From Psammoneis japonica (taxonomy: Eukaryota), in contig QPGO01000050.1 in NCBI GenBank assembly GCA_008632985.1, positions 434,001-498,000 on the forward strand: a DNA stretch of 64,000 nucleotides, given 5' to 3'. A model generated the notes under the pieces. That model was not told the origin of the DNA, ran no database searches, and saw only the letters and a list, made by a program, of their open reading frames with translations. Every line of letters begins with the position of its first letter. The stretch's first letter is position 1. Of the stretch, positions 15,130 to 64,000 are shown piece after piece. The translations under genes and the position numbers were made by a program.

Positions 15130-16830
15130 TTATTTGCGTGAACTTCTTTGTTCTCCTGCACCGTTTCGTCAGCGGCGTTGTGCTCATTGCTTGCGCCACC
15201 AAAGGTTCGAACCTGCGCCATGGGCGTTTTGCCCATTGTTTGCATCACTCAGGTTTGCACCTGAGCTGGGATGCGTTGTCGTGGCGAAACCCGCCCGTCG
15301 CAGTTTTAAGCCGCCACAACAATGAGCCGTCATCGAGCGCAGAATCCTAAAGCACGAGCACGCGAGAAAGTTGAGGAATCCCTGGAAAGGAATCAAAAAA
15401 AGACAGCGCGTAAAACAAGCCAAACCAAGTGCAATGATCTGTGTAAGTGGAAGAAATAACAAAGACGACAGGCCAAGAGATGTAAAAGCAGAGGAGATGC
15501 CACCATGCCAAAAATCTTGCCAAAATGCAAAGAGCGATTTTCTTTGTGACAGACTGTCCAGAGAGTGTCTTCGCCATGGTCAGAGCAGCACAGACCATGA
15601 CGAGCCCAACAGGAGCTGCAATGAATGCATTTTCATGATCGTCATCAAAGTGACACATTGCAATGCTGCCCCCCACAATGCTTGGAAATCCCTGCAAAAG
15701 CAAGGACCAGACCAGCCTCAAAAGGCACACCAGCTGGTCCATCCTGAATCGCTTGAGTTTGTCTTCACTCAACCGACACACTGTGGACAACATGAGGGCA
15801 AGGGAAAGACTGGAGAAAGGTGTGGCAATGCCCCACTGGATGAAAAATGCTTGAGCGGTTCATGTTGCATTGTTTCCTTTGGTGCCATGGTGTGCTGAGT
15901 CCTCTGGTGTGGTTGCTGGTGTTGAGAGCAACCATGCTGCTGTCAATGACAGGACATCTGCACAACTCATGGACGGGAGTGTGTCATGTGGGGCAGTGCT
16001 CTTCTTTCTTCAAACCATGTTGTGGGTCATGAATGATGATCCCTGTTGCATTCAATGCAAATAATTCAGCAGCTTTGAGACAACTGCACACAATGCCTTT
16101 TGTCCTTGACGACAAAATGAGCTCGCAGCAGAACAGACAAGATGGCCGAGGAGATTCTCAGCATCCATGCCAAGATCCTCTGGCATCTCAGCAACTCATC
16201 ACCCTCACATCCACACAAATGGCCTGCACTGTCCTGGTTGAAGGTGCAGTCTTCATCACCTTCTGCAAATGCCCAAGCGATCGATGGACTGACAAAGTCG
16301 TGCATGCAAGGGGGTGTTGCCCAACAAGGAAAGAATTGTTCNNNNNNNNNNNNNNNNNNNNNNNNNNNNNNNNNNNNNNNNNNNNNNNNNNNNNNNNNNN
16401 NNNNNNNNNNNNNNNNNNNNNNNNNNNNNNNNNNNNNNNNNNNNNNNNNNNNNNNNNNNNNNNNNNNNNNNNNNNNNNNNNNNNNNNNNNNNNNNNNNNN
16501 NNNNNNNNNNNNNNNNNNNNNNNNNNNNNNNNNNNNNNNNNNNNNNNNNNNNNNNNNNNNNNNNNNNNNNNNNNNNNNNNNNNNNNNNNNNNNNNNNNNN
16601 NNNNNNNNNNNNNNNNNNNNNNNNNNNNNNNNNNNNNNNNNNNNNNNNNNNNNNNNNNNNNNNNNNNNNNNNNNNNNNNNNNNNNNNNNNNNNNNNNNNN
16701 NNNNNNNNNNNGGATCAGCTCTTGCTTGCAAAACCACAGAAAACCTCTTCACTCCTGCTCCAAATGTTGCTTTGTAAGTCAGGAGAGGAAAGTGGTGAGC
16801 AGAGTCAAACCTCTCAGAGACAGCCTGGCG
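15130..16830. other. TpA/CpG-depleted degenerate domain 1 (spans the assembly gap)
   Basis: About 1 TpA and 13 CpG in 15541-16341 by manual count; TG/CA-rich. Confidence 0.85.
16342..16711. other. Assembly gap (370 N)
   Basis: Run of N. Confidence 1.
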
Positions 16831-18160: not shown

Positions 18161-18299
18161 AAGTACCTGGAAGCATTAGATATTAGGTGGGAGAGAATGC
18201 AATCGAGACGTTAGTGAGTCTTGATTAGCATCGAGGGGATATATGTTATTAGATAGCTTCGAGCAGAAAGTACAGTACAATATTATCATGATCGTTCGC

Positions 18300-18460
18300 T
18301 ATTCTAAAGGGCTCTATGTAGGTTCCATATGGTTACCGGTACAGCCCTAGCTCTAGAGGGCTACACTCTAGAGTCGTACCGGTACTGTAGCTACTAGCAC
18401 ACTCTAGCTAGCTAGCCCTTTGTAGGTACTTTCTAAAGAGTATGGTAGAGCGAACACAGG
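18300..18460. repeat. TAG/CTAG-rich low-complexity tract
   Basis: Dense CTAG, CTCTAGAG, TACCGGTA and GCTAGCTAG words. Confidence 0.75.
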
Positions 18461-18812
18461 GACCAACGTCAAACATGAATCCTTTCCTTTTAGAGTACTT
18501 TCCAAGTATAGTTTGAGGAAAGCAACTAAATCGCGAGTCCACGTTCGGCGCATCCCGGATGCGTCTGCCTCCTCGCGTTATTCTTCATCAATAAAAACTC
18601 ATAATCCACTAACGACACATGGTATTTAAAAAAACCGTCATTGAAACTCAACAGTGAGAGATCAGCATCAGCGCGATTATTAGCTGGTACACACGCTCTC
18701 TCCGGCAAATATAGCTCCAACATCAAAGCAACACTTTTGTTTCATATCATTTTTCTAAAATTTCACGTCAAGCTTGTCGCTACACAACCAATCGCGGTGG
18801 ACCATCATACTC

Positions 18813-26835: not shown

Positions 26836-27462
26836 TCACGGTATCACGGCCACTGAATTTCTGCAAGGCTCCAAAAAGATGACGTGAACCGTCGATTCCA
26901 CTGAAAAGCCGTAGTCTATGGGACGCCGGAAATCTTCCAGCATCTTCCCAGCGAAACACAAGCTGATATTTTCGCCAGGTACATGCCTCAAGTTCTCACG
27001 TGGGACACCGCCAAACAGCTCCACGGCTTTCAGTTTCAGCACAAGACACGGAAAGCAAAGCGAAGGCAATTGGATGCTGCATGTCTGCCGGTTCAAAGCT
27101 TTGAGATGAACCATGTAGGGCCGAGTTCTGGAAACTCTCCTGACCACGTGAAGAGTTGAGTGGGGAAGGATTCCAGCCTCGGAGAGGGTGACCTGGTCAC
27201 TTCCGTGTCCATGTAGCACAAAATCTACCGAAAACACAACGGATGCATCTCCCTCGTGACGAGGGTTCTTCTCCTTCCACAACGCCAACAGACGCTGTAG
27301 AAGTTCCCCAACTGACTCGCCCATCATTGCATCCTCAAAGTGCAGCTTCTGCGACTCCCACGGCGATTCTTTGAACGATTCATTGGAAATGTTGACTACA
27401 ATTGCATCCATTGCAGATTTGATGACAGCTTTGGGATTCACTCGATACTCGACACTCAACAA
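26836..27462 (-). CDS. Protein with two tandem ubiquitin-like domains (start uncertain)
   Basis: TLSEAGILPHSTLHVV and LCFAGKMLED..PIDYGFSVESTVHVI resemble the ubiquitin C-terminal half. No terminal GG. Confidence 0.65.
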   Translation of the reverse strand: MLSVEYRVNPKAVIKSAMDAIVVNISNESFKESPWESQKLHFEDAMMGESVGELLQRLLALWKEKNPRHEGDASVVFSVDFVLHGHGSDQVTLSEAGILPHSTLHVVRRVSRTRPYMVHLKALNRQTCSIQLPSLCFPCLVLKLKAVELFGGVPRENLRHVPGENISLCFAGKMLEDFRRPIDYGFSVESTVHVIFLEPCRNSVAVIP

Positions 27463-27699
27463 TCAAGACACCTGTTTGTCATCAGCACTGACGACCAACC
27501 AGATCAGTCACGAATCGAAGTCGGCGCGGCAGGCACAGGCGGGCACACCGGCATGCAGCAGTGCGTGTCAGCGCGTCTTTTCCCAACAGACGAGACATGT
27601 CCCCCCTGATGCTGTGCTAGCTGCTGTCAACACTGAACACCAACGCGTCGACTGCTAGTAGCTAGAGTAGAGATAGACTACCAGGCCGGGGGACGCCTC

Positions 27700-30600
27700 A
27701 TGCGTGTGTGGTGTGTGCTCCCTCAAACTCGCTCGCACGTGCATGATGAGTCTTTTCACGATTTTGCGATCTCTCTTCTGGCTTTCAAGGACACACTTCT
27801 TCTGCAATGTTCGCAGAAGGGCTGCAGCACTTTGCAGTTGGCTGAGTGGAGAGAGGAGAGAAGACAGCCCCAGGGAGACTTGAACACTGGAGGGGGCATC
27901 ATCAAGAAGGGCAGAGGCAACAGTGCATTGTTGGCGAACATGGCACATGGCATGGGGCAGCTCAGGAGAGTCCAGGGATTGTTGCTCACTTGACGAGGGC
28001 AGCAAAGGAAGTGGCAAAGAGGACAAAGAGTCAGTTGCCAGCATTGGGGTGAAGTTGTGGAAGAGGTTGCAGAGAGGTGGAGATGAGAGTGGTGGGGGGT
28101 TGTTCCAGGAGGAAAGGGGGGAGAGCTTGGGGGGCAGTGGAGTCACCAAACGGAAGCTGAGCTGCCTGCACGAAGGAGGCCAAAGCCACCAAGGGATGCA
28201 GAGAAAAAGGCTGTGGTGAGGGAGCAAGGAGGGAGGGGGTGACACAGCAGAGAGCAAGGTGTCTTGAAAAGGGGAAATTCTCATGAGTGGGTTGGGGGGG
28301 TGTCTCCTCAGGGTCAGCCACCTCAAAGTGGTGGCATGAGCTGGCCCTGATGAGGGGGCAAGCAGATGAGGAAGGAAAAAAGAAGTGCTTGAAGAGCTGA
28401 GCTTGGGTTTGCTTGTTGTGGGCGCAGATGAGGAGCTTCTTCACCTTAGAAGAAAGGGCTGGGGGCATTTCAGAGAGGACAGAGCAGGCAAAGTCAAGAA
28501 GGCTTGGGAACCCAGGGGTGGCCGAGAGGGAGCAAACATCAGACGAAGCAAGCTCAGGGTTGCAGGACAGGTCATTGTTGGGGTCAAGGCAGGAGAGAGC
28601 ATCCCAAAGAGGGCCTGCCTGCAAAAAAGGAAGTGCTGGAATTGTGCAAGCTCTGCCAGTCAAAGTGAAAAATTTGGCTTTGCAGACGTTGAGAAGCTTG
28701 GTGCTGTGTGTGGGCACCAAGAGCTGCAAAGCACTCAAGGCCAAGGGAGAGAAGAGTGCAGGGGAAATGCAGGAGCATCATTTGCACAAAAAAAGCCAGC
28801 AGAGGTGGGGGAGAAGGGTGGAAGACAGTCAAGGAGTTTGCGGTTCATGGGGCACAAAGGGCTGGGGAGAGAAGAGCCAGCCATGCAAAGATGTGGCCAA
28901 GCGGGGGGCAACCTTGAGGAGTGTGAATCCTTTGTGCTGCTGAGTGAACAAGCTCCATAAAAAGTCAGGGCAATGTTGCTGGCAGTTGTTTGAGCTCTGC
29001 AAATGATGGCATCAAAGAAAAAATGGAGGCACCAGAGGTGGAAGACTGGTGTGAAAAGAGGCAAGGAGGTCATGGCAAGCATTGTTGTCGTGTGACACTT
29101 TGTTGAACATGTGACAAGGTTGAGGAGGGGCAGGAGGGCTTGGTGAGAATGGCAGACAAGCCAAGCCAATGCTGGACATCAGCTGGGTGGAGCAGTGTGG
29201 AAGAGACAGTTGGGGCCACCTCTGATGCTGACTCCTAAAAATTGCCCACCAGCCGCCAACAAGGAGGTGCTTGGTGAGCTCAGAGCTGAAGAGAGTCATG
29301 ACAACAGACAGAGCTGGTGATGTGCCAGAGAGCTTCAAAAACATTGATTGGATGAAGCTTGTCAAGATCAGACTGGTCTTTGTGCATGGCAAAAAAGCAG
29401 CTGGAAGCAAGGACAGGGTGGATGGACAGAGGCACTGAACCACTGAGCAAGAGGACAAGTGGGGCCCCAAATGAAGGCTGGCGGGGTGGTGTGAGTTGCC
29501 TGCTTTTGAGTTTTGGTGGTGTGGAGACAGGTGCAGGCTTTGAGAAGGTTGGCAGAGTCAGCAAAAATGCTGGCAGCATCAGCAAGCTTTGTGCATGCTG
29601 AGGGCAGAGAGCAGAGCATTGGCAGGGAGGCAGATGGGGCAGTTGTTGCAGGAGGGCCAAGGTGGAGTGCACACCCGGGGCAGAGGAGGGAACATTGCAC
29701 AAGCGGAGGCAGTGAGGGCACAGCTTGAGCATGGCAGAGAGAAACCCAGGTGTGATGACAACAAGAGAAGGTTGGCTTGGAGTTTGCTGAATGGAAGCTG
29801 CCTTTGTGGCATGTGCTTGGACAGAGCAGCAGCAGGCAGAGGTGGAGAAGTCAGGTGACAAAGGAGCACCATCAGGCAGCAGGGCAAGAAGCAGGCGTGA
29901 AAGCTCATTGCAGAGCTGACACAGGCATGACCATGGCAGAAAATTGAGAGGCAAGAAGCACCAACAGCAGGGCTGAACTTGGTGGGGCCCCAAAAGGAGG
30001 GACAGGGGCAAGGAGGAGCAAGGCCTCAAAGAGCAGAAAAGTTTCCAAAAGGGGGCTGAATCCCACTGCCAATGCAGAGCAAGGCAGCTGGGGTCATGTG
30101 TGGTGGGCTTGGATGCAGCAAACACCCACTGGACAATGTGATGAAGGGAGGTGCTGAGTGTTTTGTTTGTGGAGGGAGAAAGCAGCCAGAGGCACAGAAG
30201 GGAGGGAGTGCCACACACCAGAGGGAAAAGAGCTGCTGGGGGGGAGGGCAGTCAGTTGCCAGCACAAACACCACTCCTTTGCAAAGAGCTCAAGGGTCTG
30301 GCAGCAAAACAGCCAGAAAAAGGGGGGGGGGGAACCACAGTTGCACAGGTTGAAGTTGGAGAGTGCAGCTGTGCACGGGGAAGCAAAGAAATGGAGTTTG
30401 AGCTGCTTGGTGGGTCAATTTCATGGGCACAGAAGACTGGCACAAGAACGGAGTGGAGACCACAAAGGAGGCATTGTGTGCTGGATTGGGTGAGAGGGCA
30501 AGTGAGGCAATCTGTGAGGACAGTGTTGGCACCATTTTTTTCTGGCAAGCAGAGATGTCCTTGAGGGCACCACAGATGCTTGCAAATGATGCCTGAGCAG

Positions 30601-31600
30601 GGAACAGAGCAGCAGGGAGGAGCATTGGCACAGAGGAGCTGTGAGAGCTTGAAAAGATTGAGGAGAAAAAGAGAGTGGGTTGGTGATGTGGAGGAGAGTG
30701 TGATTTGAACAGTGTCAGCTGACACAGATGTGTGGAAAACACAAAGGGGCAGAACTTGGTGTGGCAGGCTCTTGGCTCTGGCTCAAGAAAAACGTGCAAT
30801 GGCCTGGTGCTGAACAGGATTGATGAGGAAGGTGGCATGATCCTAGAATGACAGCTGTGGAGCCAGAGACTGGCAGCAAAACTGGGTGTTTTGCTGACAA
30901 GAAAGGCACATGGGACACAGGAGAGCAAACACTCACAAGTGCAGTGGGAGAAACAACAGAAGGAAGGGGTGATGCCAGCAAGGATGCTGTGCACCAGAGT
31001 CATGAAGAGTGCAGTGCCAAGTCCAAGGGTTGTCACCCATGACAGAAGAGTTGGCAAAGCAGCAGGAGGGTTGAAAAAGGCAGAAAAGTTGCCAGTGGCA
31101 GGCCAAAGTTTGGTGAAGTGGGAGCTGGGGTCTGTGCACCATCTCTGGAAGAAGGGCAAGCCTTGGCCTTGAAAGAGGCAGCCACTGAAAGCAAGCTGAT
31201 GATCTCCTCTGTCATGGTGGGGAAGAGGAGACAACTTCATGGGAGAAGGCCCTCTTCTGGCTCTGACAGGGTCAAGAGCATTTCTTGATTTTGAATGTGT
31301 GACAGACTGAGCACTTGAGAGCAAATGCAAGGTGGGGGGTGCACTGTTCACTGTTGATGCTGCAGCACAGTCAGAAGGCTTGTCAGATGGGGTCAGCGGG
31401 GGTGGGCATGGAACAATGTGAGCCAGAAGCCCAACGTTGGGCAAAGTGAATGGAGTGGGGGGTGGACATGGTGGAGGTAGACACAAGGAGTGCATTGATT
31501 TGCAATGAGGTGATTTTGTGGGCAACAACTTGCCAAAACAAAAGAAACATGGAAGCTGGCAGCAGAAACACATTGATGTGTGCATGTGTTGTGGTGCACC
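27700..31600 (-). mobile_element. Heavily mutated non-LTR retrotransposon (CRE-like reverse transcriptase); extent approximate
   Basis: Ordered minus-strand motifs HKD..DKLHPINVFEALWHI (29312-29390), MFNKVSHD (about 29090-29112), QGCP (about 28905-28916), CAND at the YADD position (about 28777-28788) and LNVCKAK (about 28675-28695). Confidence 0.7.
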
Positions 31601-32549
31601 AGCATGAAAGGAGGCTGGGTATGATGAAAAAATAGAGGTGGCACTTTCTTTTGTCCTTGGCTGTTTTCTGTGTCAATTTGTCCAAGTTTCAAGAAACAAA
31701 GAAGTGGCAAAAGCACCAGCTTGTTGTTTGCTGCGTGATGTCTGCTCCTGGCTGTGTCACACTCTGACCTCTTGCCCTTTCCTGCAGCTTTTCTTGTTGG
31801 CACACACAGAGTCCTGGGTTTTGCTGGTGCCTTCTTGCACAGCTGTCATTGCCAGTGTGCTGCTGTTTGGGCACATCCTGCGTTTTGAGTGGTGGCATGA
31901 CTGATCTGCAGCCTTTTCTGCCACAGAGATGACCCAGCCAGCCTGATGATCATTGCCTGCATCTTTTTTCATTTTGCAAGCAGCAGCCAGCCATTTTTAA
32001 AAGCCTTTTGTTGCACGCATTTTTGAACTCTTTTGCTGTTTGAATCAGATCAAATGAGCCATTTTGTCAATCTCCATTGACAACACGTTTTAAGCAATTG
32101 CAAGCTGTCATTTGTTTGCCATTGTCTGGGTTTGCCAAACATTGTTTCAATCAGATGCAGCGCATCTGAGTTTGCAGAAGATTGATGTCTCACTTTTTGT
32201 GACACCATCCTGCTCTTGTTGAAATTTAAATCTTCACACACCACTGGCCCACTTGCTGCATCTTGATTGTTTGTGTCTGTTGGAGCTGCGCTGCTGTGCC
32301 AGCTGATCATTGCTGCCAGCACCCACATGTGCAGCTTTGTTGTGCACTCTCAACATGGTTGAAATTCACAGGAAGGAGGACAGAGGGGCAGCAGAGTTGG
32401 CCTCAAAGGCATTTCTTGTGAACAAGATGTGGTGGCAAAGCTGGTCAAGAAAGAGGTTGGCTGGGGGGTGTCAGCTTGCCGGCTGCAGCACTGGATGGTG
32501 AGTGCCTGCAGAAAGGCAACCCAGCAGCCTTTGGAGAAATGGGGGCACT

Positions 32550-34370
32550 GCATCACCTCCTGCAAATGTTCCTCCTCCCACACAAGTGGCTGCTCATGCC
32601 AACACAATTTTGTGCTGGCTGTTGTGGCCCCATGTCACCTTGTCCACAAGAGGTTCAAAGTCAGAGCAAACTCGAGCTTTCCAACTTAAAGGTGAAGGGG
32701 CACCATGATCACATCATCAACCAACCCAACCAAAGTGAGCTGAGGGCACTGGCAGTCTCTGGTGGACCCCAGCTGACACTTTAGGAACCACAGCCAAGCA
32801 GCACAAAAGGCTGGCATTGTGCAGTTCTTGTTGCACCCTGTCACCCCCCCCCCCCAGGCCACAAGCAGCAGAGCTCAAGTCCACAGTGAAATGACCCCAC
32901 AAGTGCACCAGTCAACCAGCCCATCAACTGCAACAAGCTGAGGGTGCTGCTGGGCCTCAAGCAACACTTTAACAACCATGTGGTTGAGCACTGCAAGGTT
33001 GATGTTGTGGTGGCACTGTTGCTCTGTGCCACCTTGTCCTTGACAGGAGGTGAGCAGCAGACTTGAGTTTCCAAACTCCACAGTGAAAGGATCCCACAAA
33101 GGTGCCAACCAACCCAACAGCTGCAAGCTGAGGGCAGTGCTGGTGGTGTTTGGCAGGCCCCAAGCAACACCTTGAGAGCTGTGGTTGAGTGCTGGCTACA
33201 AGGCCTGTCTTGTGTGGTTGTGTGCAACCCCCCAAAATCACGCTCTCCACACCAGAACCATGTTTGAAATTCCCAACTCCAGCCACTGTGAAAGGGCCCC
33301 ACAATGGCACCAACTGACACTGCAGCTGCAAGCTGAGGGCACAGGTGGTGTCTGGAGGACCCCAGGGGCACTTTGAGAACTGTGGCTGAGCATCGTTGCA
33401 AGGTTGATCTTGTGGTGTTGTGGACCCATGTCACCTTGTCTCGAACAGGTTGGAGGGGCAGACTTTTGAGTTTCCCAACTCCAGCAGAGGGCAAAGGCCC
33501 CATGACAGCACCAACCAACCCAGCTGCTGCATGGCAAGCTGAGGGCACTGGCAGTGTCTGGCAGCAGGCCCCAGGCAACACTTTGAGAGCTTTGGTTGAG
33601 CCCTGCAAGGTGCCTGTCTTGTGCAGTTGTGCCCCCTGCCTGTCACATCCACGCCAGAAGAAGATTTGAAATTCCCCACTCCAGAGTGAAAGGATCTCAT
33701 GGTGGGCCAACCAACACAACAAGAGTGGGAAGAGGGTGTTGGGGGTGTCTGGTGGGCACCAGGGGACACCACTTTGAGAACTGTGGCCAAGCACAGCATG
33801 GCAAAGTTTGTGTTGTGGTGCACTGGCCTCATGTGGTCATCACCTTGTCCCAGACAAGAGCAGACTTGAATTTCCCAGCTTGGCAGTGAAAGGACCCCAC
33901 AACAGCACCAACAAGCCTTGCAACTGCAAGCTGAGGGCACCATCAGTGATGCCTGGCAGACCCCAGGAATCACTTTAAGAACCATGGTTGAGCACTGCAA
34001 GGTTGATCTTGTGGCATTGTGACCCCGTGTTTTCTTGTTGTTTGGAGCAGACTCTGTGTTGAGTTTTTCAACTCTAGAGTGAAAGGACCCCACAACCATG
34101 GTGAGGCAGCAACCAACCCAACTGCAGCAAGCTGAGGAGGTGCCAGTGGTGTGTGTCTTTGAGAGCCATGACAGAGCTTTGCAAGGCCTGTCTTGTGTGG
34201 TTGTGGCTCCCAGTCCCAGTGCCCTCCTCCCTGCTAGAAAGAGACTTGAAGTTCCAAGCTCCAGAGTGAAAACACCCCATGACAGAGCCAATCAATCCAA
34301 CAAGAGCAGGCTGAGGGCATTGGCAGTCTCTGACAGACACCAGGGGGGCTCTTTGAGAACCAACTGTTTC
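32550..34370. repeat. Diverged tandem repeat (satellite-like), unit about 180-205 bp, about 9 copies
   Basis: A GCTGAGG anchor recurs at about 32739, 32937, 33127, 33332, 33538, 33930, 34131 and 34310. CCAACTCCA.AGTGAAAGGA.CCCACAA-like segments recur at the same spacing. Confidence 0.85.
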
Positions 34371-36840
34371 TGAGCAGCAGCACAAGATGACCTGCAACCT
34401 GCAATCAAAAATGAGCGAGCCTTGGTTTTTCTTGCTGTTCCCATCCCAAGGGTTGATGCATTTTTGTGTGGGGGGGCAAGGCTTGCACATTGAGATGTGC
34501 ACTTGAAAGGCTTAAAAGATGTGAATCAAGGGCTGTGCCAAGAATTTGAAAGACATGATGGCGAGGCATGCATGATGTCAGCAGGGCAGCAAACTTTCAT
34601 GATTTGTCACCAGGGTCTTTGGAAGCACATGCACAATGAGAAGCCAGAGGCTTGGCAACTTGCTGCATGCATGAGACACTTGATTGTGGCACCTGAGAGG
34701 TTGGGAGCATTGCAGCACAATTTGTGGAGTGCACCCACAGGTCCACAGGAAAGAGGCATCACATCAAGAGCTGGGACAACCACATGGTTTTGAAGGTGGC
34801 AGCTTGAGCACACAGGTCAAAGGCGTGGACAACAGCCATCACATGATTGGAGCATGTGCACTTCTCAGCCCAGTTGATCCAAGATTTGATGGCTTGCCAG
34901 CATGACAGCAGAGTGAAATGACACAGCAGGGCTCAATGACAATGTGCAACTGCAAAGGCACGATGCATGTGTGGCTGGGATGAGGCTGGTGTGGTTCATT
35001 CAAAAGTTTGATTGTGCCAAGTTGCAGTGGGTGAGCAAAGCTTCAAATGGCAATGTGCTGGATGCACCAGAGACACAGAGGAGTTGTTGTGCAGTGGCAC
35101 CAGGCAGCATGAGAAGAGTGGAAAAAATCTAACGGCATTTTTGAATTGAGTTTCTTGCTGTTGCTGGGTGGAATTGTTGACAATTGCAGTGTGGGGGCAG
35201 AGCTTTCGGCCCCAGGTTGCAAGAAAATGATTGGTTGAACAGAGGATTGTTCATGCTGCAATCTGGGTTGATGTTGGAATTTGTCACAAGTTGCAATGTG
35301 ATGACAAGGTCAAGTCAGTTGATGGGCATTGTTTGTGGCAACTGATGGAAGCACACAAATGTCTGAAGGAATTAAATGAGCAATGCCATCGCATGGAGGC
35401 TGCTTGACATTGTGGTGAGCCGGGGTCTGGAGCACAAGTTGGTGTTTGGGCAGGAGGAAAGGACTCAAGTTTGCAGCTGCATGGTCTGTCAAAAGCAACT
35501 TGGTTCAACGGAAGTCATTTTGAAAGGAGAGTCTTTTCATCATCATTGTTGGACATGCAGTTGAGACACAGTGGATTGCACCAGGGGTGTGCCATTGTCT
35601 TGTACAAACAATGGATTGACAGCTGAGTTGTGCACAATGCCCCATGCAACAAAGGGACAAACATGCAGCAGCAGAAACACTGAAAAAATGCAGTGGTCAA
35701 CCAAAGAAAAGCTCTTCCAAACAAATGAGTCAACTCTGAACAAGATGCTTGGCCACAAAACAAAACATTGCAAATCAGTGGCTCTGCCAGAAAAATGAGC
35801 TGTCTGTCAAACTGAGCCCTGAACAAGGAATGATTTTTTAGCAGCATCACATCATTTGTGGCAAGGGGCAATGAGCCAGTGGCAAAACATCTCATTTGGA
35901 ACTTGAGCAACAGCAAGGAACTTGGCTGACTTTTTCTAAAATTGCAATTCCTGCAGTGGAGAGAGCAACCACACAATGTGCAAAAAAAATTTCTTGTCAT
36001 CAGCTGCTCTTCTTGCCAAAAGCATGAAAATGTGTTGCAGAGGTGGGGTGATGGACCGTGCTCTGTGGGGGCTCTGTTTTCCATGTGAAGATTTGTCTGG
36101 AGGAGAAGGGTTCCAGCCTTGAAGGGGATGAGCTGGTTGCTGACATGTCCACACAGCACACAATCTGCTGAAAATGCAGTGGGTGCATTTTCCTCACAAA
36201 AAAGACTCTTCTTCTCCTTTCACAAGGCCAGCAGGCACACTGCTGAAATTCCTCACAGCTGGCTTCTTGACCCCACAAGCAACACATTCTCATGTGGCAA
36301 CGTTGGTGTCAGCTGCATCCGTTGCAGATTTGAAAGCTGCTTTGGGAAGCACTCAATGACCAAGACAAGAGGTCGAGACATGCACCAGTGCCATCAACAG
36401 CATGTCTCCCCATCAGACAATGTGGCTGATGCATTGATGCTCCATCAACAATGCCATCTGCTGGAAAGGGAAAGACGACACCTGCCTCGTGTGCTCTCTC
36501 AAACACTCCTCAACTCACTCGAGTGTGGGCGGCAGTTGCTCTCATGATTTTGTGCTCGTCTCTCCTCCAGCTGGAGGACACTTCCATGACATTCATAGAA
36601 GGATGGCATCATCTGCTTTTTCCATGGTGGTGTGTTGGGCCATCGCCCACATCGTCACCGGTGATCTTTGAATATCCGGGTCTCTTTTGATGGATGGAGT
36701 TCTCTTCTTTTCTTCTTTTTCGATCGCGTCCGTCGTTTTTGTGTATTGAAGACACAACATGAAGCAGCAGACGACGCCCAACATTGACTTATTTCTGTAG
36801 ACACTGGGCTTTGAAAGATAGAGACAAGAGTCGTATTATC

Positions 36841-38265
36841 ATGAGCAGCAACAATAAGAAAGCAAAGACGGGCCACGACTTCGACACGGTGCAACAGTAC
36901 CTGCTCGAGTGTCCCGGAGTATCGAAAGATTCGCCTGCTATTCAAGGGGCACTTCGCGGTTTACAAGAGGAGCGCAAACGCATGGAGCGTGACGAAAAGC
37001 TTAAAAAGAAATTTGCTTGTACTATCACTGAATCTAAAACGCAAAACAAGAGCGTAACGTCTCCGTCTACCAGTGAACAACCAAAGAAGAAAGCGGGACG
37101 CAGAGAAATCAACACCGGGATCGACGAGGAGGAGGAAGAAGACTGGCAAACTTCGCTTGATGATGATGATATGATGATGACTTCTCATGACAGTGACTCG
37201 CCCTTGGGGAAACAGCTAGCACAGGGATCCATTCGTACCATGTCTCAGGCTGGAATCACTGTGAAAGACCCGCTCTCAGCGATTGCTTTGGCTCTCCACG
37301 GTGCAGTGCTTCAACTCGATTTTTGTTGTACGGGAATACCCCCGCCTAAAGAAGGGAACGGAGGTGGCTTTGCTCCTCCGATTCGACCATTACCGAAGAA
37401 CCAATATGTACCGATCGATTGGGATACTCACTCCTCAGATGAGGAAGGCCCGTATGTTGCCTTGCGTTATCGCAAGGACAACCTTGGCGTCGTCCATCTT
37501 GTAGTAAAGCAGAGCAGCAAAGATGATCACATTATGATGCAAGTCCAGTTGACTCCCGGAGAAGACCATACTGAACCTTTGGAGTTTGCTTTGGACGATC
37601 ATTTCAATCAAGATTCCTTTCTTACGGCGTCGTTAGCCAGCGACGACAAACGCGTCCTTCCAGCTCTACATTACAAGGCCTTATCGGTGCTTTTAACCAA
37701 GTTTTGTAATACGTTTGATTTGGGTCCTGTCCACGTTGATTCGGATGAAAAGCCTCTGGCTGCAGCAGCTGCGTCAACACAACCATCAACTCAGACTAGC
37801 TTCCGCCCCGCAAGCGGTCCTCAGACTTTACAGAGTCAACCGGATCCTCTTCGCATTTACAACCAGCACGAAGACCCCAACATTGGTCAGTTTCAACGGC
37901 CTCAACGAGCTGGCGACTTTAGCGGAGATCTGCTACCTGGCAGCCTTACTGATCCCTCATTTGGTCCCGGTGTGTCGGGAGGCAATCTAATGGGTCCGAA
38001 CCATCCGGCGTTTACTGGTGGTGTCGACCCACCACGATTGGGTGGAGGTATGGGCATGAAACCGCGATTTGATCCATATGGTCCGCCGGGTGGTCCGACG
38101 GATCCCAACAATCCTGACAACTTTGGATCGGATCCTAATCATCCCTTGGGAAGCAATACAAAGAATAGGCCTCCTCGTCGTGCGCCGCCGGGTGGATCTG
38201 GTAACCCGAATCCAGACCACGAGCTCCCCCGTCCAACATGTTCCTCTAAAAATGCTTATTATTAG
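36841..38265 (+). CDS. PSMF1: Proteasome inhibitor PI31-like protein
   Basis: FP-domain-like AIALALHGAVLQLDFCCTG and a Pro/Gly-rich tail with GNLMGPNHPAF, PRFDPYGP and PNPDH. Confidence 0.82.
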   Translation: MSSNNKKAKTGHDFDTVQQYLLECPGVSKDSPAIQGALRGLQEERKRMERDEKLKKKFACTITESKTQNKSVTSPSTSEQPKKKAGRREINTGIDEEEEEDWQTSLDDDDMMMTSHDSDSPLGKQLAQGSIRTMSQAGITVKDPLSAIALALHGAVLQLDFCCTGIPPPKEGNGGGFAPPIRPLPKNQYVPIDWDTHSSDEEGPYVALRYRKDNLGVVHLVVKQSSKDDHIMMQVQLTPGEDHTEPLEFALDDHFNQDSFLTASLASDDKRVLPALHYKALSVLLTKFCNTFDLGPVHVDSDEKPLAAAAASTQPSTQTSFRPASGPQTLQSQPDPLRIYNQHEDPNIGQFQRPQRAGDFSGDLLPGSLTDPSFGPGVSGGNLMGPNHPAFTGGVDPPRLGGGMGMKPRFDPYGPPGGPTDPNNPDNFGSDPNHPLGSNTKNRPPRRAPPGGSGNPNPDHELPRPTCSSKNAYY

Positions 38266-43987: not shown

Positions 43988-44357
43988 CTAGAAATAAAAC
44001 ATGTCGATATGTGGTTACCGCTACTACTAGAGTACTGTGAGTGTAGGTAGGCGTCTCCCGACATGCTTCTTCGTTGCTACATTACAGGTACTTGGTTCCG
44101 GTAGCTCCAGCTAGAGAGAGGGTAGTAAATACCGGTACTTGTAATATACTGCTACTTCTAATCTACTAGAGAGTAGAGAGTATTACCTACTAGCTACGGT
44201 AGCTAGCTATACCGTAGAAAGAGAATAGAAGTAGTCTCTCTACTAGTAGCTACTGGTAGAGTAGAGAGAGTTTATTCTCTAGAGAGTACGGTAAGTAGAG
44301 GGCTCTAGTAGCTAGAGTAGAGAGTAGCTACCGGTAGAGCTAGCTCTCTAGCTAGAG
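43983..44357. repeat. TAG/CTAG/AGAG-rich low-complexity tract
   Basis: Mosaic of CTAG, GTAG, AGAGAG, TACCGGTA and AGCT words between the ThrE and PPR genes. Confidence 0.85.
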
Positions 44358-57853: not shown

Positions 57854-59588
57854 ATGGAGAAACAAGCTTCGACATTCAAAAAAGACAAGAGAAACGATGA
57901 AACTACGCTCCTCTTGCCGAGGACCGAGAGCAATTCTGACAGCGAAAGCGACGACAGCGAGATTGTTGTCACCTACGCCTCCTTGTGGACGTCGCATCGT
58001 CCGTTCCGGTTGTTGTTTGTGGGGTGGAACTTGACGATTTTTGGGGAATGGTTCAATTATGTTGCAGCCATGACGCTGCTCAAGCGAATTGTGAACGATC
58101 CGGAAAACGACAAGACAGCCATTGCCGTGTTGGTCGTGCTTTGGTTGTTGCCAGAAGTGATCTTTTCGGGCGTGGGTGGATTGCTAGCGGACTTGTGTGA
58201 TAGACGATGGTCCATGATTGTCCTGGATATACTCGCCGGTTGTCTGGGATTAATGTACTTGATAGCCTTTGATTCCATGATCTTGGTGTATCTCATTTCT
58301 TCCTGAAAATGACCACTGGAGCCCTGTACGAACCTTGCGCGGGATCCATCTTCCCCATGCTGCTCGACAATGCACACGAACTCAAAAAGGCCACCGTAAG
58401 TAATGCATGCCCGCGTCAGCAACAATTTCAGAGATCTCTCTGACATGCATTATTGCTGGAACTTTTGCTTCTGATTTAGACCCTATGCGTGTTTTTCGAA
58501 TCACTTTTGGCGGCGCTGGGACCGGCCCTTGGTGGCCTAGCCGTCTCAATGTGGGGCTTGACAACGTGTTTTGGTGCGTACGACGACGGAGTTCCGCAAT
58601 GTCCAAAAATGCTTCGAACTATGGCTCACCCTTTACGATACAGTTTTAGACAGTCTACTGTGTTTCGGAAGTGCGCTATTGACATGGTTAGTCGGTGGAT
58701 CTTGGGATCCGTCCGATGAGGAAGACGATACCAGTTCTGGAAGTAGCGAGGATGGAAGAGAATGGGGAAGGAGGTGATAGTAGCTCAACAAATAGCGAGG
58801 ATGAAGAGGCCGAGGAAGAAGGGGACGAAACGTTGTTTCAGACGCTACGGAAAATGGCCGTGGGTGGAGTCCAGTATCTCATGCGCAGCTTTTTCGGTCC
58901 GTTGGTCTTGCTCAATTGCAGTTCGGCCTTGATTTACGGGTCCCTTGACGTTCTCGAAGTCTCTTTTTCCGAACGAGGGCCCGACGAGAGTAGAGACAGC
59001 TTGCTGCTCGGCACACTGTTTAGTTTGTCTGGCTTGGGCGACTTACTTGGCACTATCATTGCGGAGTATTTCACGGACGTTAAAAATCCCAGTAGTCTGC
59101 AACGAGCTTGCGTGTGGTCATTCTTTTCTATGGCAGTTGCCTTTCTCGGCATGGGGATCTTCCCTGCCTTTGTAAGTCCTTGCATTTTTACGGTAGTCGA
59201 TTCTGCCGGTGCGACCGTGATCGAAATTGCGTCGGAATTATTGCTTCAGGTACGTGCACACTAAGCTTTGCTTTGGCACAGTTGTTGGTTCAAAGCTCAT
59301 GTGTTCCATACTCTATACACACAGTTATACACTCGGCCTAAGATGCTGGGACGCGTGTTGGCGATTGACATCACATTGAGCACGACAACAGAGATTATTT
59401 CCGCCATGCTGGCGGGATGGGTACAGGATACCTTTCATGTTTCGGCGCAGTCGGTCAGTTTGGGAGCGTCGGTGATCGGATTTTCCGTCTTTCTTTCGTG
59501 GTTCGTCTTTCACAGAACTGGACACGGGGCAGCCAGTCTACGCGCTCGAGCTCATGCAGGCCATTTTTCCAAGGCACCGCGTGTTTGA
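57854..59588 (+). CDS. Major facilitator superfamily transporter (DHA3/H+-antiporter-like), with introns and frameshifts
   Basis: FGEWFNYVA, motif A GGLLADLCDRRWSMIVLDI, ALYEP, LGPALGG, MLGRVLAID, multiple TM helices. Confidence 0.85.
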
Positions 59589-61160
59589 CGACGTCAAAAT
59601 CTAAAATCACAGGGACTCCCATGAACTTACATTTGAGATTATGTTATTAATATTCAGAGTCACACCAGTGGTAGCGGATGAGCTTTGAAATAACAACTGG
59701 AATCATTCAACACGATTGTAATGACAGAAGTGACAATGGGTATGGGTTACCTCTAGGGTGCCAGAAGTGGCAATGACGTTATGTTGCCGTTCGTCGGACC
59801 TTATCAAGTGGCTCCCCAAGACAAAGGGTTAAAGACAGAGTGCATCAAACAGCTCAATATATAGGAATGCCTCTGAATTGTGGTTTAGAAAATGTCATGT
59901 TTGGATTTCTGTTCGCCTCATCCTCCCGGCTCTACGACGAAGAGCGGATCCCTGGTGTGTCGTATCAAGAGCTAGCCCAAATGAGAAACGCCTGCAACGG
60001 GCAAAGTTCGGCGGTGTGGATATAGATGAGGACAAAGGATTTAGATTAGACGAATTTAGATGACAGTCTGTATCACATGTTTGCAAATCGCAGTGACTAG
60101 CAGATTCCCAGTGCTGGTGGTAGTGAGACTGTGAACGCTTCGGAGCTCACTATGGGAAAGCAGAGCAACAGTGACCGGATCGACGGGAAGAATTGGCTGC
60201 AGGAGCAATTCTGGTGACGCACCAAAGGAGCAATCATTTTTTGACGAGGATTGCAACAATGAATGGATTGAAGGTACAACTGTTTCATTTGACAGTGTGA
60301 CGGGAAAGTTAAGCTCCGGGGACACTCCCGGTGGCGTCACACTTTGACAACCGTTCCTGCATCTCATTCAAACAAGAAACAGGTCTGTCCATGGTTGATG
60401 TGAAGAGTGATCATCAAGAGCCAGAAGAGGAGGATGTCTTTGACAGAAATGCTGAGGAAATGAGGAACTCGCCCTAAATCAGACAAGCATGCTCTTGCAG
60501 TCGACAGACATGAAACGGTGCGTTAGATTTTGTCATTTCATTGGGTTGCTTCTTGTGGTTGGGATCCCACGTCTGTTGCACTTTACCAGTGCAACACTTC
60601 ATGATGCTTTCTTGACCGTCAGCCAGCACCAGTCTTGCATTCATGATCGCGGTTGTTCCGTCATGGATGGAAATCCGGGTAAATTGGCCACAGCTTGCCA
60701 TGACCAGTTTGTTTTCAACAGGAGGATGAGATGGCAAACAAGGCAGTTTTCTGTCACTGAGTCTTCTCAATCAAAGCCTTCTTAAAAACCAGGTCATGCA
60801 GCTCTCTGTGACATTGTCCAGGAGCTGCAAGCTGCAGACAGCTCTTTCCTGGAGTGCCGCATGGCTGCGTTGATCAGTGATGACCGTGTCACCCAAGGAT
60901 GGCTCAAGTGCAGGAATTCACAAAACACATCGTTTGTGACAAAGAAGGCCAAAGAGGCCAGTTTGATTGTGTCCCCAGTGCCAGCCTCCAGTCTAAAGCA
61001 GCCAGGCCCTCCACGGCAGTGGCTGACCTCTGTTTTGTGGAACAGTGGGATGATTTGAGTCACAGTCACATTTCGGTCATTTTTGTGCTGCACCGTTGCC
61101 AAAAAAGGTCAACTGGGAATCACATTTCTGAGGTGCAATTCCAAAATTGTTGTTGTGTGG

Positions 61161-61345
61161 ATCACCATCATCAGGCCTCTTCCACAAAAATTGACAACAA
61201 AAACAAGAGCACATCATCTCACTGTCATGATTTCTGAGGCACCACTCCAAGATTGTGTTGTGTTCATCACCATCATCAGGCCTCTTCCTCAAAAAACAAC
61301 AACAAAAACAAGAGGGCATCATCTCACTGTTGTGATTTGTGAGGC
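61161..61345. repeat. 105-bp tandem duplication
   Basis: ATCACCATCATCAGGCCTCTTCC...AAAACAAGAG..CATCATCTCACTGT occurs at 61161 and 61266. Confidence 0.88.
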
Positions 61346-63290
61346 TCTGTTCCAAAATGGTGTTGGTCACTTTTCCTGGTGATTTCAATGCATTGTGCAT
61401 CAAATGCAGCCACGCTTGTCATTGCAGCAATGGTTTCTGGTCCTTCTGAACAATGCAGAGCCAGCAAAAGTGTGTGCACCAAATTCTTGATTCATGCACT
61501 TTGGGCTTTCATGTTGCACATGGTGCTTGCTGGGCAAAGCCATTGATGCCAGACAGTGCTTGCATGCACGTCAGATGTTTCTAGCTGTTTCAAATGATGC
61601 AATCTGCAGCTGTGTCATTGACAAACTGTGCATGGTGTCTTGATGACAAATGTTCACAACAGCCATTTCAACAGAAGGTTTCAAACCAGCTGTTGTTCTT
61701 CCACCTTTCACACCTGAAAAACAGAATGAAGTCATTTGGGCAAGATGATTTGGGTCAACAGGTTTGGTTCTCAACCTTCTCAAATGACATGAAGCAAACA
61801 AGAAATTTTGGACAAGGGGTCTGCACTGGCAACATGATCCTCACATGGTGACATTGGTCCTCATGACTCTGATTTGCAATCCATTGTTCATTCTTTGCTG
61901 GCGCTGGTGCTCTGGACTCCAAGTTGGGAGCAGGGTTGTTGGCACTTGGTGCGTGGGTGTTCTGATTTTTGATCAGTCAGATCAGAGCTGCTTGGTGGAT
62001 TGTCCTGATCATGCCATTCTTGACCAAGCAAACAATGGCTCTGGTTCAGGACAAATCTAAAATTTGTGTTTTGAGTGCAAAACTTGAGACTTGAGATGAA
62101 CAAAAAATGCAAGGTCAGACAAGAACACAATGACACCACCTGCAAACCGCAACTTGAAAATTGAAGCAGCTGACTCTGCAGCTTCCCACGCACTCCCCAG
62201 AATGCCAATGGTGGCTCTTTGAGAAGACATGCAAGAAAGGTGAGCTGCTGCTGCACTGCACTGGGAAAACACTGGGGGCTTGACTTGAGACTGTTTGCCA
62301 GCTCTTGTTTGCAAGCATCCTGGAAGTGCTCAGTGCAGCATGGCTCCAAAACTTGACCAAAAGAGTTTGGGCTCAACAAACATTGGTGGTGGGGTCCCTC
62401 CTCATGCCCCTGTGACTGTGAGAACACCATGCCAGCACCTCAACTTCTTTCCATTTCCCAAAGGTGCAAATGCTTCCTGTGAGGCTGAAACAAAAAAGCA
62501 GAGTGTTTCAAAAAGCCAATCTGTGGATCAATTGCATGGTTGATGGCTGCAAAAGAGACAAATCTCAAAGGATTCACAGGGCCAATCTTGGCAGTGGTTG
62601 GCCTGTCATCTTGGCTGCAACAATGCCAGCAACAAAGACAAACCTTGTGGGTGCAGACTTTGACTTAAAATGCCACCTCTTTGAAGAAAACAATGAAAAC
62701 AGAGACCAGCCAACAGCAGAAATTCAGAAACTCCATTGACCATCCATGTGTCTTCATCTGCAGCCCACACAATGAGGTGCAATCATTGCACTTCAGCTCT
62801 CAACTTGGGTCTCAAAGCACTTGGGTCAATGTGGGGCTGCTGTCATTGCTGCATGGTCAGACAGTCCATGGCTGGACATCTGCTGAGCTCACTTGACCAG
62901 ATCTGCACATTCTTGCAAAGCTCAACCAGCTCCTTTTCTGGCTCCACATTGAAGCTTCCATCTCCTCTCATCCTTCTTTTGAATCTCAAACAATGGGAAA
63001 AACTCTCATGACAACTGCCAGGTTGGTCAAAGCTGCCTGCGGCACTTGTGGCCATCACATGACCTGCTGATGAGCAGCTGGGAGGTGCTTTGACTCTGCC
63101 TGCATCAGCACGTTGGCTGTGTGATGAAAATGGATGCCAAGGTCAATGATGTCTACACCTTTCAGGAATGACCAAAATCCATTGTGCTCAATCAATGACT
63201 GCTGCACCACCAGGTGCAGGAAGATCATGGTCGTCTCAACCAATCATGTTGCCAAGTCTCCCTGCCAGGTCAGGACTTGGCAAACTGGCA

Positions 63291-63945
63291 TGCAACAAGC
63301 TTGCATGTGGCCACTCTTCACTGTGGCAGTTCTCTTTCTTGTCATGGGAATCTTTCCCACCTTTGCACATCTTTGCATTTTTGTGGTGGCAGATTCTGCT
63401 GGTTCTGGCACATGCAAACCAAGCTTTTGATTTGGCCCAGTTGTTGGCTCACATCTAATTTTTCCATGCTTTGTGCACACTGTTGTGCACTTGGTCCAAG
63501 AGATGCTGGCTGGGGCTGCATTGGTGATTGATGCCACATTGAGAACAATGGCAGAAAGGAGCATTTTGCTGGTCATCAGATCATCTGCCTTTCTTTCACA
63601 GCTCATCTTTTACAGAAGCGGACATGCAGACATGTGGGGCAGCCACCAGCCCACATGCTCAAGCTCACTTGGGCCATTTTTCCAAGGCTCCACATGATGT
63701 TTGACAATGTCAAAATCTAAAAACACAGGGGCTTCCATGAACTTGGCAACACACCAGACTGTCAAACTTTGCATTTTTGAGATTGTGTTGTTCAGAGTCA
63801 TGCCAGTTGCAGGGTGGATGAGCTCCAAAAGAACAACTGCAATCATTCAACACATTTCCAATGACACAAGTGGTGCTGGTTCTGGTCCACCACCATGGCA
63901 CCAGAGGCAGGCAAGTGGCAATTGAGATGTCATTTTGCCGCTCCC
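63291..63945 (+). pseudogene. Mutated DNA-level copy of the MFS gene 3' end, last intron and downstream flank (about 59098-59790)
   Basis: Ungapped 113-nt alignment 63291-63403 vs 59098-59210 (88/113 identical by hand), with further collinear blocks to about 63945. Confidence 0.92.
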
Positions 63946-64000
63946 AAGACATGTTGCAAAGGGCCAGCTTGTGACCATGTCTCAGCCATCAGATTGCTCA

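Follow-up and report, generated by a model that had tools for sequence, protein, structure and literature searches.

Loss of TA steps from mobile and duplicated DNA of the diatom Psammoneis japonica, with a preference for a following pyrimidine

The TA-depleted domain and its surviving TA sites

We analyzed a 64,000-nucleotide stretch of the genome of the diatom Psammoneis japonica (the window: positions 434001-498000 of contig QPGO01000050.1, within the 91-Mb assembly GCA_008632985.1), in which a sharply bounded domain is depleted of TA and CG. DNA in which TA has become TG or CA is called edited below, and positions are those of the window unless a locus elsewhere is named. The domain, its parts and the neighboring gene are listed here.

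27750..36550, no strand assigned: sharply bounded domain of ~8.8 kb, poor in TA and CG and rich in TG/CA
26836..27750, minus strand: part of an unedited single-copy gene with a ubiquitin domain, the source of the copy at 36072..36550
28149..30604, minus strand: decayed fragment of a non-LTR (long terminal repeat) retrotransposon, or long interspersed nuclear element (LINE), with the reverse transcriptase open reading frame (ORF) 2 and the end of ORF1, with ~60% similarity to a family that is represented elsewhere by near-intact copies
31640..35980, no strand assigned: interspersed repeat family, class not assigned, with degenerate ~200-bp internal units at 32620-34360 and 134 genome matches
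36072..36550, no strand assigned: edited dead copy of 27135-27750
28447, 29236, 30844, 31998, 32091, 32227, 32687, 32782, 32970, no strand assigned: first nine of 17 surviving YTAR sites (Y, C or T; R, A or G)
33976, 34075, 34235, 34513, 35130, 35373, 35839, 35937, no strand assigned: last eight of these sites, the overall span being 28447..35938

The last TA cluster before the domain lies at 27618-27679, and TA returns to its usual density after ~36670. By its motifs we take the LINE fragment to be CRE-like; relatives of it in metagenome contigs numbered 0 among 85 candidates. Every copy of the 31640-35980 repeat family that was fetched is depleted. Tandem Repeats Finder reported 0 arrays in 27500-37000, a Pfam scan of nine ORFs of the domain gave no match, and a search for paralogues of the ubiquitin-domain gene returned only the gene itself at the sensitivity used.

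In the interval 28440-36600 there are 24 surviving TA sites, and 17 of them are YTAR (8 TTAA, 3 TTAG, 3 CTAA, and 3 CTAG). Both counts had been given in an earlier reading of this DNA (the original prediction), and the ten coordinates quoted there are all among the 17. In unedited window DNA the YTAR share of TA is 355/1978 (17.9%; Fisher p = 2.6e-8 against 17/24). The enrichment also held against harsher expectations, namely 25% (p = 3e-6) and the 35.6% computed from the domain's own flank composition (p = 5e-4). The persistence of the excess at these two values rules out stop-codon avoidance, which could have depressed the YTAR background. The CG sites that survive here served as a control: 9 of 47 had Y and R flanks vs. 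709/2868, which is no enrichment. TAAA or TTTA is present in 12 of the 17 surviving YTAR sites.

Short-read contigs of run X1 covered all 30 bins of the domain, and the eight longest pieces differed by 0-9 letters each. An assembly artefact is thus ruled out as the cause of the depletion; runs X1 and X2 are one sample, possibly the source of the assembly, and the agreement excludes a consensus artefact only and is not independent biological support. Of the seven survivors outside YTAR, two (31478 and 33197) are altered in the X1 read contigs. At 31090-31091 the assembly has TG and a read contig has CA at one step, apparently because an ancestral TA or CG changed separately in two alleles.

The same pattern was found beyond this domain. 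A survey was made of fetched and window DNA, 674 kb in all, in 500-base bins, with the 28440-36600 finding excluded and with repeat copies that are not fully independent of one another. YTAR made up 211 of 304 TA (69%) in other doubly (TA and CG) depleted DNA (131 kb), 124 of 311 (40%) in bins depleted of TA only, and 1830 of 9815 in unedited bins. The opposite context, RTAY, fell to 5 sites in doubly depleted and 18 in TA-only depleted bins vs. 2945 in unedited bins.

Direction of change identifies the flanking base

A YTAR site reads TAR, and also YTA, on either strand, so that survival alone fits a rule in which a 3' pyrimidine promotes change (TAY) and a rule in which a 5' purine does so (RTA) alike; the original prediction had taken survival to imply TAY, which does not follow. 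The product of a change shows its strand, and the direction of change therefore separates the two rules. From an all-against-all search came 64 alignments, each TA-rich on one side and TA-poor on the other, of which five with LINE queries were removed (already edited). The remaining 59 hold 648 TA sites; the fits excluded 107 of these that had other changes and 9 at which TA had become CG.

At the asymmetric sites (YTAY and RTAR), the strand that reads TAY carried the change in 164 cases vs. 77 for the other strand (p = 2e-8), and in 129 vs. 49 when only sites with identical flanks were counted. The TAY/TAR ratio was 2.13 (cluster bootstrap 1.73-2.70), or 2.31 with a free strand term for each pair (p = 6e-9); the per-pair terms rule out a coding-strand bias that mimics context. 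Twenty of the 22 informative regions leaned to the TAY strand, with one tie and one reverse. Counted by the next base, TA>TG occurred at 174/344 TAC, 161/371 TAT, 70/229 TAG, and 64/236 TAA. Unedited paralogues showed no such bias (TAY 69/1127 vs. TAR 54/787); we concluded that the bias belongs to edited domains, and a general, genome-wide mutability of TAY is ruled out.

Survival in the aligned pairs was 18/75 for YTAR, 21/165 for YTAY, 16/118 for RTAR, and 6/183 for RTAY. As 57 of the 75 YTAR sites were edited, the proposal that TAY is the target was too strong: judged from these alignments, the target is TA, and the 3' pyrimidine is only a 2.1- to 2.7-fold preference. A model with the 5' purine (RTA) alone was rejected, its fitted fold of 0.76 having the wrong sign. 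A better model combined a pyrimidine at +1 (2.2-2.7), A at -2 (1.7), and TAAA (0.31), the last two terms being chosen out of 16 feature sets tried. We give next to no credence to a protective base 5' of T or to an artefact of composition or assembly as the source of the pattern. The former is permitted by survival, and editing is indeed 1.7-fold faster with A at -2, but the direction of change has the wrong sign for it; against the latter stand the excess over local composition and the read contigs with their few differences.

The original prediction held that a TA-pyrimidine preference explains YTAR survival. The preference is there, but it covers only part of the effect: at the observed depletion a TAY/TAR ratio of 2.2-2.7 predicts 46-59% YTAR among survivors, and 69-71% was observed, a level that takes a ratio of ~3.5 or the TAAA term. 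This shortfall of a plain TAY rule speaks for an explanation by DNA shape, in which YTAR survivors are mainly remade by slippage at junctions of T-runs and A-runs or shielded by a stiff A-tract, with no enzyme reading the flank. So do the TAAA or TTTA sequences in most of the 17 survivors and the densities of CTTAAA and TTTAAA in depleted relative to unedited DNA (1.04 and 1.0). The direction bias is independent of survivors, however, and remains 2.5- to 2.7-fold once the TAAA term is included. Shape is possibly a second layer; as the whole explanation we regard it as improbable.

Edited copies of host genes and mobile DNA

The other features of the window that bear on editing are as follows.

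57854..59800, plus strand: unedited gene for an MFS-like transporter (MFS_1, E 2.7e-5, below the Pfam cut-off), against which edited copies in the window and on another contig (C88) were compared
63291..63945, plus strand: edited copy of the MFS-like gene, with an inferred intron retained
60750..64000, no strand assigned: second depleted domain, which continues ~2.5 kb beyond the window end and holds the dead MFS-like copy
59985..60750, no strand assigned: partly edited fringe of the second domain, member of a small family (host repeat or gene) of which five other stretches carry unedited copies
15500..16750, no strand assigned: third, small depleted domain, broken by an assembly gap at 16342-16711

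In the MFS pair, 19 of 22 aligned TA were changed to TG or CA, one was kept, and two had other changes. The retained CTAA reported earlier was found at 59602/63718 (the position given, 59621, is ~19 bases off). Most changes in the pair are on the TAY strand, as had been stated, but this majority is weak taken alone (12 of 19 edits), and three of the four YTAR sites were changed.

Each large edited domain has a dead direct copy (36072-36550 and 63291-63945) of the gene immediately upstream of the domain, as if local duplication had accompanied insertion. Close duplicates elsewhere in the window (12167-12598/19704-20131, 11948-12151/12657-12863, and 321-903; 81-95% alike) are not depleted, and duplication alone is thus not a trigger of editing. 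Two TA-rich bins, 44001-44250 and 18251-18500 (40 and 31 TA per 250 bases, respectively), are probably simple repeats in intergenic DNA.

Mobile DNA and host-gene copies were both edited; viral DNA was not identified among the targets. When edited plastid insertions were sought as a clean test, one such stretch only was found: a TA-rich psaA/psaB-family sequence with an open frame (L030:7400-10000, L119:1-500), apparently unedited, between two TA-depleted blocks. It may be a recent insertion, an untargeted insertion, or a chimera. A ~1.1-kb repeat family (L066-L083), which was outside the fits, has copies ranging from unedited to fully edited.

Young LINE copies vary at TA sites; as far as present sequences can tell, these differences point to recent activity of the process. 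In a young non-LTR family (L026:3097-9299 and relatives) the frames are open despite low TA, and Tyr accounts for 15 of the 1253 residues of ORF2; active lineages thus appear to outlast repeated editing.

Specificity, products and relation to CG loss

Change of A to G depended on the 5' base: TA>TG reached 469/1180, vs. 174/1877 for CA>CG, 154/2068 for AA>AG, and 97/1720 for GA>GG. The rates at GA, AA, and CA (0.056-0.093) were near their reverse rates. AA>AG in particular was close to its reverse (91/1419) and five times below TA>TG, in line with the original prediction that AA is not a target, contrary to what DNA polymerase eta would favor. There was a weak excess of AAY (50 vs. 27, p = 0.012). 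CAY was not raised (43/644 in edited copies vs. 98/1556 in controls).

TG and CA products both occur in every well-sampled copy. Runs of one product were absent (148/314 neighbors alike vs. 155 +/- 9 after shuffling), and processive editing of one strand is ruled out, since products are unclustered. At 24 of 67 sites, two copies of one gene carried different products, which indicates that copies were edited largely independently. New TA were nearly absent: TG>TA was seen at 5/1444 sites in edited copies (which were selected for low TA) vs. 109/3381 in controls. This suggests repeated rather than single passes of editing.

The copy of the MFS region on contig C88 has gone from 67 TA to 18, and from 95 CG to 97. 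LINE copies were likewise found with low TA, normal CG, and open frames, and others with both dinucleotides low. TA loss is thus separate from CG decay and faster. The CG decay is probably caused by deamination of 5-methylcytosine; in Phaeodactylum, DNMT5 methylates transposons (PMC9998398).

A TA>TG change on one strand reads as TA>CA on its complement, and the sequence is silent on which base is hit. The T of 5'-R-T-A could be the base attacked or misread, either as a modified thymine or through an error-prone polymerase that places G opposite T during repair in methylated chromatin. TA-depleted domains do coincide with CG decay, and polymerase eta is described as producing WA>WG by use of dGTP opposite T (PMC11507097), so that A>G after T would be common to both processes. 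Three observations speak against it: AA is not raised here, transversions at TA are few (90/1180), and TA is lost without CG loss in the C88 copy. We consider an attack on, or misreading of, T unlikely, although it deserves more weight than the other alternatives.

RNA editing of retroelement transcripts by an ADAR-like enzyme, fixed afterwards by reverse transcription, would agree with a higher count of LINE edits in the sense orientation (288/1765 vs. 177/1763) and with the presence of two editase-domain genes in this genome, one of them diatom-conserved and lacking an evident RNA-binding domain. Within each copy, however, both strands were changed, and host-gene copies that retain an inferred intron were edited as well. 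The hot spot given for ADAR2 is 5'UAG (PMC10661471), yet TAG was changed more slowly than TAY here. We regard this route as very improbable.

Candidate enzymes

Family searches of the genome gave nine matches of cytidine/dCMP type, five of MafB19 type, and four editase matches. Labels of the dCMP, riboflavin, and guanine type put on individual deaminase matches come from our own reading of motifs and are provisional. The genome has an ADAT2-like gene (contig C26), a TadA-like gene (contig C38), and two editase-domain genes, none of which stands out in this survey as the mutator; ADAT2- and TadA-type genes are generally housekeeping tRNA editors. The second editase gene (L165:1114-2830, on contig C79) has motifs that look catalytic but no RNA-binding domain that is evident, and among its 246 homologues the named ones are from diatoms. 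ADAT2 and this diatom-conserved, stand-alone editase domain are among the candidates.

Two side observations were made on these matches. Locus L060:313-1785 encodes a 2-oxoglutarate-Fe(II) dioxygenase fused to a zinc deaminase domain, and the deaminase matches L056 and L057 (contigs C41 and C317) have equal score and frame length, perhaps as uncollapsed haplotypes.

Discussion

The process is real and well above chance, and its host, targets, and probably its flanking rule are new relative to the TpA hypermutation described in one preprint. In integrated viral DNA of Bigelowiella natans, that preprint (Mettrop et al., bioRxiv 10.64898/2026.01.13.699255) reports TpA-only A>G/T>C hypermutation with TpG and CpA products and directly observed de novo TpA>TpG/CpA changes; the enzyme is not known there, and ADAT2 is proposed. 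As in Bigelowiella, transitions in P. japonica are almost TpA-only, both products occur in each region, and TpA-poor blocks rich in CpA and TpG are bounded; clusters of TpA-poor windows there carry transposon domains, according to the same preprint. In contrast to the single-copy viral inserts, the diatom targets are LINEs, a repeat family, and host-gene copies, editing is near saturation, and CG decay goes alongside. The main text of the preprint, the mutation table being separate from it, gives no flanking rule or trinucleotide analysis and does not mention diatoms, whereas the diatom process has the order TAY > TAR with TAAA slowest. The literature searched, most subscription journals lying outside its coverage, contained no account of diatom repeats losing TpA.

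Repeat-induced point mutation (RIP) of ascomycetes also makes dinucleotide-specific transitions on both strands and ruins repeats and duplicates (PMC5148876). Its direction is the opposite, since RIP makes TpA from CpA and TG>TA was nearly absent here. Moreover, a working gene stayed clean in P. japonica while its copy was edited, and window duplicates that are 91-95% identical were both unedited. Base editors derived from TadA change A to G after a 5' pyrimidine and favor a 3' C (YAC for early editors; PMC7056309). The likeness to TadA drawn in the original prediction extends to the favored 3' pyrimidine; a 5' C is unused here, unlike in TadA/ADAT2 editors, with CAY at control level, and the rate at TAT comes close to that at TAC. 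The likeness is a resemblance only.

On balance we favor a locally acting DNA mutator by which 5'-TA becomes 5'-TG on one strand or the other, likely by adenine deamination in silenced chromatin. TA is converted on both strands of mobile and redundant DNA within limited blocks. The process requires a 5' T, acts two to three times faster when C or T follows the A and ~1.7 times faster when A precedes the T, and is slowed ~3 times again at TAAA. YTAR, which reads TAR on both strands, is the last context lost, and its share among survivors climbs toward saturation, as between TA-only and doubly depleted bins. Most probably adenine is turned into inosine by a zinc deaminase of the host, which would be brought to silenced chromatin repeatedly and act site by site.

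Several results weigh against this reading. In none of the deaminase and editase matches, viewed at exon level, was a chromatin- or DNA-binding partner domain seen. Across 20 young LINE copies the overall counts agree with the preference (TAY 286/1590 vs. TAR 179/1938), but singletons do not (20/1590 vs. 26/1938), and on the antisense strand the bias is gone (29/272 vs. 148/1491). We judged the young LINE sites to be survivors of an already edited, selected lineage, and as such biased as rate data. The best single copy that could be polarized three ways, on contig C88, gave only 12 vs. 9, and all data are inferred from the present sequences of one genome.

More tentatively, and with somewhat less confidence than in the local mutator itself, we propose that diatoms, and perhaps the Stramenopile-Alveolate-Rhizaria lineage more widely, have a natural adenine base editor, a host deaminase directed to silenced chromatin, that makes inosine from A in genomic DNA, takes T-A-pyrimidine first, and serves genome defense without a need for paired copies, with a polarity opposite to RIP.

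Where mobile DNA is dead or a gene copy redundant in P. japonica, nearly every TA step is now TG or CA, and we found one prior description of TpA hypermutation, in an unrelated alga and without an enzyme. The fingerprint obtained here (a strict 5' T, then C/T > G > A after the A, with TAAA slowest) can be used to screen candidate enzymes, and the flanking rule is a means to judge whether the diatom and Bigelowiella processes are one. Should the agent turn out to be a deaminase, it would count as a DNA adenine editor occurring in nature. The process also matters for understanding the death of diatom transposons and for the dating of repeats.

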